This document shows positions 44,788 through 45,487 of a stretch of 52,258 nucleotides of DNA, piece after piece. This stretch comes from a virus (lineage: Duplodnaviria > Heunggongvirae > Uroviricota > Caudoviricetes): the IMG/VR virus record IMGVR_UViG_2721755660_000011, one strand, 5' to 3'. The position numbers and the translations under genes were made by a program. Within the stretch, counting starts at the first letter, position 1; the number at the start of each line of letters is the position of its first letter. The notes below the pieces were generated by a model. That model was not told where the DNA came from. It saw only the letters and a list, made by a program, of their open reading frames with translations, and did not search any database.

Positions 44788-45135
44788 ATGGCTAGTGAGC
44801 AGGGATTCGAAAAGATTAACATGGATATGTTGGTCTCTTATTTCTCAGAAAAGAATATATATCTAAAATGTACACTATGTGGACACGACAGATTGACTGT
44901 GCCTCAAGTCAGCGCGAATGTGGGCATGCCATGTACTATGAAACTTGGTAGTTATGTGAATGTTTTTACTGAAAAAAGCATTTATTCTGATACTGCTAAC
45001 CAGTATTACTTTTCACTAATATGCAACAATTGTGGAAATGAAATTCATATAAATGCGTTTTCAGTTTTGAACTGGGTAAATGAAAAGTTCCCAGCAAAAA
45101 CGGAAGATGAAAAAAATGCCGACGCCGCAAAATAA
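44788..45135 (+). CDS. Hypothetical zinc-ribbon-like protein co-transcribed with cI
   Basis: 115 aa; two CxxC pairs (CTLCGH, CNNCGNE); good Shine-Dalgarno 16 bp after cI stop. Confidence 0.5.
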   Translation: MASEQGFEKINMDMLVSYFSEKNIYLKCTLCGHDRLTVPQVSANVGMPCTMKLGSYVNVFTEKSIYSDTANQYYFSLICNNCGNEIHINAFSVLNWVNEKFPAKTEDEKNADAAK

Positions 45136-45487
45136 TGTAGTACCATTTAATAGTGAACTTCCCACAATTAGAAGACACGGTGGAGATGGCGGAGGTGATG
45201 ACATGCTTGAAGCCCGAGTCGCTAAGTTAGAAGCGAATGTTGAGGATATAAAAACAAATCTCGCAGAGATGAGAGCTGACATTCGTGATTTGCGAAACGC
45301 TCTCTCCGACACCCGACGCGATGTCGCTGTTATCCTTCAAAAACAAATAGATATAGATGAAAAGTTGTCAAAAAAACCTAGCCTAAGTGAAGTCAACAGC
45401 GCTATTTCATCAGCCGTAAATAAACAGATCGCATGGACTGTTGCAACAGGCTTGGCGATTTTAGGTCTCGCCAAATTTATGTTTTGA
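45116..45487 (+). CDS. Hypothetical coiled-coil protein with C-terminal transmembrane anchor
   Basis: Coiled-coil segment (LEARVAKLEANVEDIKTNLAEMRADIRDLRNAL) and C-terminal hydrophobic helix (IAWTVATGLAILGLAKFMF); start placed at ATG 45116 (GGAAG upstream); ORF track starts at 45080. Confidence 0.45.
   Translation: MPTPQNNVVPFNSELPTIRRHGGDGGGDDMLEARVAKLEANVEDIKTNLAEMRADIRDLRNALSDTRRDVAVILQKQIDIDEKLSKKPSLSEVNSAISSAVNKQIAWTVATGLAILGLAKFMF

Follow-up and report, generated by a model that had tools for sequence, protein, structure and literature searches.

A zinc-ribbon-like protein and a predicted tail-anchored coiled-coil protein with probable nested starts behind the cI repressor of an Escherichia coli prophage: a candidate exclusion module

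Two small genes, here called ORF1 and ORF2, lie directly behind the cI-type repressor gene in a 52,258-nucleotide (nt) stretch of viral DNA (IMG/VR record IMGVR_UViG_2721755660_000011), and the whole of this stretch is referred to as the window. The window was found to be an SfV/SfII/e14-like prophage of Escherichia coli, which is inserted at the tRNA-Thr gene thrW beside proA. A first-pass annotation, made from the letters of the window alone, had singled out the pair as a candidate defence system in the slot which rexAB occupies in phage lambda. In our study the pair has been examined by comparison with its relatives, and this has brought out three things beyond the first-pass annotation: a conserved internal start within ORF2, interchangeable families of partner proteins and a measure of how large the ORF2 family is. 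The features of the pair are as follows.

44788..45135, plus strand: ORF1, a zinc-ribbon-like protein of 115 amino acids (aa) with the cysteine pairs C28xxC31 and C79xxC82; a partner of class A (see below) and candidate sensor

45107..45487, plus strand: long form of ORF2 (ORF2-L), 126 aa, with an N-terminal peptide, a Gly-rich linker, a coiled coil and a C-terminal transmembrane anchor

45137..45163, plus strand: N-terminal peptide motif of ORF2-L, VVPFNSELP, of the FPxHGGG type in relatives, taken from alignments and translations

45179..45202, plus strand: Gly-rich linker, GGDGGGDD, which holds the internal Shine-Dalgarno sequence GGAGG

45203..45487, plus strand: predicted short form of ORF2 (ORF2-S), 94 aa, starting at an internal ATG and consisting of the coiled coil and the transmembrane anchor only

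45428..45484, plus strand: C-terminal hydrophobic helix, IAWTVATGLAILGLAKFMF, residues 108-126, a predicted inner-membrane tail anchor

ORF1 starts 15 nt past the stop codon of cI on the same strand, with AAGGG about 7 nt 5' of its ATG, and the pair therefore does follow cI directly, as had been described. The two CxxC pairs seen at first pass in the 115-aa product also stood up to comparison, the four cysteines being invariant across 51 homologues. ORF1 has no signal and no hydrophobic segment, and taken together with the four invariant cysteines this indicates that the protein should be cytoplasmic. It falls into phrog_4293 (E=5.2e-31), which is annotated as 'unknown function'. The best Pfam match is CpXC (PF14353), at E=0.0025 and 18.3 bits against a cut-off of 25.4, over model positions 14-67 of 121. 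CpXC resembles ORF1 in being a small protein with two CxxC pairs; however, ORF1 stays below the threshold and covers only half of the model, and CpXC itself has no known function. In PADLOC-DB v2.0 ORF1 gave no significant match, the only hit being PDC-S64 at E=0.0077.

ORF2 has possible starts at 45080, 45107 (the choice of the PGAP annotation) and 45116, and accordingly overlaps the 3' end of ORF1 by 20-56 nt. It belongs to phrog_3556 (E=1.5e-47), again annotated as 'unknown function'. In the AlphaFold2 model, residues 1-29 are disordered; two helices follow, over residues 30-88 and 93-125, with a break at SKKPS between them. Over the last 19 residues the Kyte-Doolittle hydropathy averages 1.70, which is consistent with a membrane anchor. 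The model and the hydropathy thus bear out, as a prediction, the early description of ORF2 as a gene overlapping ORF1 and encoding a coiled coil with a single C-terminal anchor. The N-terminal peptide motif of ORF2-L was seen only in combination with a zinc-ribbon partner, and it is proposed here as the docking site for ORF1. Against Pfam, ORF2 gave generic coiled coils only, all of them sub-threshold, with no XhlA or CCDC90-like match even at E<=1; against PADLOC-DB v2.0 it gave only coiled-coil-type matches (LmuB, JetC and DruC), the best at E=9e-5 over the coiled-coil stretch.

The relatives of ORF2 (loci L013-L073) show at least two kinds of membrane tail, one ending in ...GLAILGLAKFMF and a longer one, basic at its C-terminus, ending in ...SIAMPVITLLVNLYMKKP. 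The longer tail could differ in topology, to judge by the positive-inside rule. Among the species-representative genomes, a single relative lies outside the Enterobacterales, in a metagenome-assembled genome of Thermodesulfobacteriota (L018, 4001-4114). It has retained the Gly-rich linker and the coiled coil, but reads GGGDRTEARIAKLE, so that the internal Met is missing.

ORF2 most likely encodes two nested products, one of 126 aa (start at 45107 or 45116) and one of 94 aa (start at 45203), as judged from the conservation of the internal start. Relatives were drawn from annotated phages, species-representative genomes and IMG/VR, which together gave 45 distinct proteins or loci. The internal Met, which stands after the Gly-rich linker and opens the coiled coil, is invariant in 45/45 of these. 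In the window, GGAGG at 45191-45195 is placed 7 nt before the internal ATG; the relatives have GGAGG, GGGAG, AGGAGG or GGGGG in this place, with a spacing of mostly 7 nt. The codon at position -4 before the internal ATG is GGR in 27 of 29 distinct DNA contexts (GGA in 19, GGG in 8), and the codon at -5, wherever it encodes Gly, is GGC or GGT (19/19) and never GGR (0/19). This constraint on synonymous sites at the internal start has been kept between lineages whose synonymous sites are saturated elsewhere. Gene callers often annotated the short form alone, at 94-98 aa (e.g. the family members P0023, P0034 and P0037), and most of the short representatives at 50% identity retain the order of Gly-rich linker, Met, coiled coil and C-terminal hydrophobic helix. 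The distance between the two starts is about 32 codons in the window and ranges from 26 to about 100 in the relatives. The simpler possibility that ORF2 is a 94-aa protein only was rejected, since the N-terminal extension is itself conserved, evolves under purifying selection (ratio of nonsynonymous to synonymous substitution, dN/dS, ~0.14) and varies with the class of the partner.

Both genes were also compared with those of Pectobacterium and other relatives. The proportion of synonymous differences (pS) was 0.78-0.86, that is, saturated, and that of nonsynonymous differences (pN) was 0.08-0.38. Judged by these substitutions, ORF1 and ORF2 are under purifying selection, and chance open reading frames were rejected because pN lies far below the saturated pS.

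The ORF2 family was found to be large. A whole-library profile search gave 98 clusters (50% identity) at E<=1e-10 and 1344 at E<=1e-3, the latter set including generic coiled coils; a scan of genome contigs gave 6 loci only. A small gene on the same strand is situated directly upstream of the ORF2 relative in 45/45 loci, and in many of them the distance between the stop of this partner and the start of ORF2 lies between an overlap of 4 nt and a gap of 7 nt. Three classes of partner could be told apart.

Class A: ORF1-like zinc-ribbon proteins, 112-137 aa

Class B: proteins lacking Cys pairs, ~87-105 aa, of the HK544_041 and UPF_BP1_00065 types

Class C: beta-rich proteins, 132-173 aa

Profile-profile comparison revealed no relation among these classes (hhalign probability <1%), and homology among them was rejected on this ground. 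No Pfam match above threshold was obtained for ORF1, for ORF2 or for ten partner proteins. When the search was started from the side of ORF1, each inspected homologue was followed by a gene with the ORF2 architecture, even where this gene was beyond the reach of BLAST. From this constant pairing of genes, ORF1 and ORF2 are judged to be an obligate two-gene module. The N-terminal tail (N-tail) of ORF2 differs with the partner. With class A it is a peptide of ~25-30 residues, usually with a motif like VVPFNSELP or (D)FP(K/Q)HGGG; with class B it is a domain of ~50-100 residues; and with class C it has ~35-45 residues with a short beta-like stretch at its start. The simplest reading of this co-variation is that the partner protein binds the N-tail of ORF2. 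By analogy, one effector family combined with three unrelated partner families would be typical of defence systems.

The first-pass annotation had proposed conservation of the pair behind diverse cI genes as a check, and such conservation was observed. In 32/45 distinct loci the pair comes directly after a CI-type repressor gene with a divergent cro-like gene, and several repressor types are represented; Pfam confirmed all ten upstream repressor candidates that were sampled, as Phage_CI_repr or as HTH_3 alone or with S24. In one additional locus the repressor gene and the pair are separated by an insertion. An IMG/VR prophage (L056, 2406-3386, minus strand) has a gene of 326 aa on the opposite strand between repressor and module; the inserted gene may be a mobile element, and it parts the pair from the repressor promoter. 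In HK544 and VT1-Sakai the class B variant follows a lambda-type cI upstream of PL and N, in the very position of lambda rexAB, and this variant is present in 93 of 5426 complete E. coli genomes. Three loci belong to P22-like prophages, in which the pair stands after mnt and before gene 16. The interval between mnt and gene 16 is the sieA locus of P22, and sieA is found in only 22 of 66 P22-like phages (PMC10883804). In the remaining loci, which come from sipho- and myoviruses, the neighbours are tail or baseplate genes, and some of these loci adjoin an Arc/antirepressor module. This last placement fits a moron-like gene and is not evidence specific to lysogeny.

The surroundings of the pair in the window were examined next to those of its closest phages, and the features concerned are listed here.

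43697-43960, minus strand: cro

43994..44029, no strand: OR-type operator palindromes between cro and cI, CTACTTAAAGTAG at 43994 and CTACTTAAAATAG at 44017

44068..44772, plus strand: cI-type repressor (Pfam Peptidase_S24, E=8e-17, and HTH_3, E=2e-05; phrog_4, transcriptional repressor; PGAP start at 44068)

45794..45829, no strand: OL-type operators, inverted relative to OR, CTACTTTTTGTAG at 45794 and CAACTTTAAGTAG at 45817

45938..46234, plus strand: first gene of the early-left operon (position of SfV orf33), outside the cassette and given as its boundary only

49637-50800: integrase

50815-50890: tRNA-Thr

The cI gene is presumed to be the first gene of the lysogenic transcript, and a YdaS/Cro-like gene and a CII/YmfL-like gene are transcribed divergently from it. 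The OR and OL sets each consist of two 13-nt palindromes, with a 23-nt spacing in both and in opposite orientation. They belong to the operator repeat families D1 and I1, and I1 is a 57-nt inverted match between 43987-44043 and 45780-45836. The OL-type operators mark the PL region, which is the end of the immunity region, and their stretch is conserved with SfV, SfII and SfIV. The rexAB-equivalent position assigned to the pair at first pass could thus be confirmed, as the OR (43994, 44017) and OL (45794, 45817) palindromes bracket the cassette.

SfV, SfII and SfIV share with the window only the flanks, namely the cII side and the OL/PL side, and the block cro-cI-ORF1-ORF2 therefore behaves as an exchangeable immunity cassette. 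In SfV (L080, 1904-3047, compared with 44068-46234 of the window) cI is followed by a terminator and then by orf33, with the slot empty. Since the same flanking genes can thus enclose an empty slot, the ORF1-ORF2 pair is an accessory insertion. Prophages identical to the window over the region of interest are present in 15 complete E. coli genomes, and two others have it at 97.8% identity, which makes 17 of 5426 in total.

Some further observations were made in and around this region. The ~450 nt between ORF2 and the first early-left gene (45488-45937) contain the OL palindromes and no convincing gene, and a promoter-like site with a 10/12 match lies in this gap at 45684-45713. A weaker promoter-like match (9/12), at chance level in the shuffle control, is present at 45107-45136, inside the end of ORF1 and upstream of the internal start of ORF2; its place recalls the PLIT promoter of lambda, which expresses rexB alone. 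On the minus strand at 42572-42760, just upstream of the Rha/antirepressor gene (41957-42922), Rfam matches to C4 antisense RNA (RF01695, 82 bits) and isrK RNA (RF01394, 60 bits) were found. They suggest a second layer of immunity besides cI/cro, of the P1/P7 type with an RNA-controlled antirepressor. The prophage also carries genes for tRNA-Arg(tct) and tRNA-Met, with a match to the IS009 RNA family toward the other end of the window; the sites of these matches are 32975-33228 (minus strand) and 3971-4168 (minus strand). In strain GB089 (L001, 1963-3075) an otherwise identical prophage has an IS421 transposase gene near the KilA-N/RusA region.

Taken together, the module, whose protein families are uncharacterised, is best described as a prophage exclusion cassette linked to the repressor. 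Our leading interpretation, to which we give a probability of roughly 45%, is that it is an abortive-infection or exclusion system expressed in the lysogen, with an exchangeable cytoplasmic sensor and a tail-anchored membrane effector tuned by the short isoform. An anti-phage module is the best fit because of the position, the dispensability and patchy distribution, the conserved membrane effector with interchangeable partners and the nested isoform. As to the candidate defence system put forward at first pass, its structural and positional reasoning holds and has been strengthened by the comparative data; the anti-phage function itself, and the roles of 'soluble sensor' and 'membrane effector', are what we infer from context and architecture.

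The system may work as follows. The lysogen would be guarded against other phages by a logic which is Rex-like, with proteins unrelated to Rex. The repressor transcript, presumably co-transcribing cI, ORF1 and ORF2, would give rise to the zinc-ribbon protein ORF1 and to both nested ORF2 products, that is, to three proteins. The start of ORF2-L adjoins the end of ORF1, and its translation is probably coupled to that of ORF1; ORF2-S would be initiated at the conserved internal GGAGG-N7-ATG. The C-terminal helix would fix both forms in the inner membrane, and they would assemble through the long coiled coil, which by the predicted topology is on the cytoplasmic side. The flexible, Gly-linked N-terminal peptide, present in ORF2-L only, may contact and bind ORF1, which would serve as a sensor or a lock. 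On recognition by ORF1 of a cue from the superinfecting phage, the membrane-anchored oligomer would be released or rearranged, and would then either damage the membrane, with loss of the membrane potential and abortive infection, or block the entry of the genome. Of these two outcomes we favour triggered membrane damage with abortive infection, the cue for ORF1 being a cytoplasmic one. The ratio of ORF2-L to ORF2-S may set the threshold of the trigger, as in holin/antiholin or SieB/Esc pairs.

The resemblance to lambda RexAB is one of position and layout. In both cases the genes share the strand of the repressor gene and fill the slot between it and OL/PL, bracketed here by the OR and OL palindromes around cI-ORF1-ORF2; a cytoplasmic protein is combined with a membrane protein, and expression in the lysogen is presumed for both. 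The proteins themselves are different. Neither ORF1 nor ORF2 matched Rex in Pfam or PADLOC, and neither in sequence nor in fold is the module related to RexAB. RexB is a polytopic protein with four transmembrane segments and RexA is a DNA-binding protein of ~280 aa, whereas ORF2 has one C-terminal hydrophobic helix and a coiled coil, and ORF1 is a zinc ribbon of 115 aa. In the lysogen RexAB excludes specific phages by depolarising the membrane, and RexA also influences induction or the lysis-lysogeny decision. The partner swapping and the nested isoform are features of the module and not of Rex. For the long/short logic of ORF2 the closest precedent is SieB/Esc of P22, a prophage exclusion gene in which, as Ranade and Poteete reportedly found in 1993, an in-frame internal start gives a truncated product that modulates the full-length protein; the isoforms of ORF2 are predicted from sequence conservation only. 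No homology of SieB/Esc to the module was detected, and sieB is not known to lie next to the repressor.

Several points weigh against the interpretation as a lysogen-expressed defence system. No terminator-like structure was found by the promoter and terminator scan 3' of ORF2, and promoter-like sites were no commoner than in shuffled sequence. The 15-nt gap between cI and ORF1, in which the scan also found no terminator-like structure, speaks for co-transcription of cI, ORF1 and ORF2 and is the single indication of it. In principle, the Gly-rich, Shine-Dalgarno-like sequence might cause ribosomes to pause instead of starting translation there. Those members which lie in tail or baseplate operons away from any repressor gene may be expressed late in the lytic cycle and have a role in the cycle of the phage itself. 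In distant members of the ORF2 family, Pfam XhlA (PF10779) was matched below threshold (E=1e-4 to 6e-3, 17-23 bits against 34.7). The first-pass annotation had recognised neither protein as a member of a known defence family, and this agrees with our searches: PADLOC-DB v2.0 gave no real match for either one, which is neutral for a new system yet offers no support from homology, and no paper was found in the literature on the two proteins, their accessions, their locus tags or their PHROG ids. PGAP annotates ORF1 and ORF2 both as hypothetical. A search of PDB sequences with family profiles returned nothing beyond generic coiled coils and weak zinc sites of the Fur type, and a Foldseek search against BFVD, from which the ORF2 model was left out because a long single helix gives meaningless matches, returned one unnamed viral protein (E=7e-4).

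The main rival is a superinfection exclusion of the SieA type, in which an ORF2 oligomer positioned by ORF1 would block the incoming DNA or the ejection proteins at the inner membrane and the cell would survive. We regard it as unlikely. A related pair replaces sieA at its exact locus in the P22-like phages described above, and ORF2, like SieA, is predicted to be an inner-membrane protein expressed from the prophage. SieA consists of one polytopic protein of the inner membrane, which carries the conserved cytoplasmic motif FxRYPxEAxxFNK and blocks the transport of DNA (PMC10883804), whereas ORF2 has one transmembrane segment, lacks this motif and needs a partner gene. Moreover, several members of the family are morons within tail-gene clusters. 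Entry-blocking genes such as HK97 gp15 and cor also occur in positions of this type. On the other hand, the whole of ORF1, a zinc ribbon with no signal peptide, and nearly the whole of ORF2 are predicted to be cytoplasmic, so few residues could reach the periplasm; and a swappable cytoplasmic partner with a nested isoform resembles a triggered system more than a passive plug.

A role in the life cycle of the prophage itself is rather improbable. The module would then be either an XhlA-like accessory or timer of lysis, with a dual start in the manner of holin and antiholin, or a membrane tether which sequesters a zinc-ribbon regulator of induction or of the lysis-lysogeny decision. It always stands beside regulatory genes (cI, mnt, Arc/antirepressor) or within late operons, and the search results lend this role some substance. 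Besides the sub-threshold XhlA matches in distant members, CCDC90-like (PF07798) was matched in distant members, again below threshold (E=5e-5; the best-scoring member, P0122, reached 23.6 bits against 33.5), and these XhlA and CCDC90-like matches span most of the model length; one ORF2 homologue is named 'Hemolysin XhlA' in UniRef, and weak matches to PHROG 'hemolysin' and holin models were obtained. XhlA, which is associated with lysis in Bacillus PBSX, and the CCDC90-like/MCUR1 proteins have the same layout of a cytoplasmic coiled coil and a single C-terminal transmembrane helix. However, XhlA is located in a lysis operon, lacks both the Gly-rich linker and the partner-specific N-tail and is not known to have a partner gene; the ORF2 of the window itself lacks an XhlA match at E<=1, as given above. 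Dual-start motifs are classic in holins. In lambda S105/S107 and phage 21 S68/S71 one membrane-protein gene gives two products from in-frame starts, the longer with an N-terminal regulatory extension; their starts are 2-3 codons apart and they have 2-3 transmembrane segments, whereas the extension of ORF2 is a partner-specific peptide or domain. Further, separate lysis genes are present elsewhere in the prophage of the window and in its relatives, and the module is dispensable, being absent from SfV, SfII and SfIV with the same flanking genes. Its distribution is patchy (17 and 93 of 5426 E. coli genomes for the two variants), and a housekeeping function of the phage would hardly explain why one conserved effector has three unrelated partners.

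A toxin-antitoxin-like addiction module, in which ORF2 would be a membrane toxin checked by ORF1 or by the short isoform and selected for the stability of the prophage, is very improbable: the operon is small, with two tightly coupled genes (from the 4 nt overlap to the 7 nt gap seen in many loci), a membrane protein of this small size with a tail anchor could plausibly be a toxin and the module is mobile across prophage types, but its gene order and size are unlike those of known type II modules, no signature of a protease-labile antitoxin is present, the strong preference for repressor-adjacent exclusion slots is unexpected from addiction alone, and many such modules defend anyway and hence overlap with the explanation as an anti-phage system.

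Time and again, genes found beside prophage repressors have turned out to encode systems of exclusion or abortive infection, e.g. rexAB and bstA, and sieA is likewise linked to mnt. The present module, which is unannotated, fills such slots in many unrelated prophages of the Enterobacterales, including relatives of Stx1 phages (VT1-Sakai) and P22-like prophages of Salmonella. At the level of the family, it is a tentative proposal, held a little less firmly than the one for the module in the window, that ORF2 represents a large, unnamed prophage anti-phage family, in which a tail-anchored coiled-coil effector, with two isoforms owed to a conserved internal ribosome-binding site, would be combined with at least three unrelated sensors docking on the isoform-specific N-tail, and whose spread among lambdoid, P22-like and further Enterobacterales phages would have put it into their repressor-adjacent slots in place of rexAB and sieA. 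If the module is a true defence system, its tail-anchored coiled coil would be a new and compact type of effector, and the partner classes would provide a clear natural case of sensor swapping on a fixed effector with a built-in regulatory isoform. If this is so, some of the phage resistance of lysogens that still lacks an explanation would be accounted for, a matter of relevance to phage therapy and phage typing.

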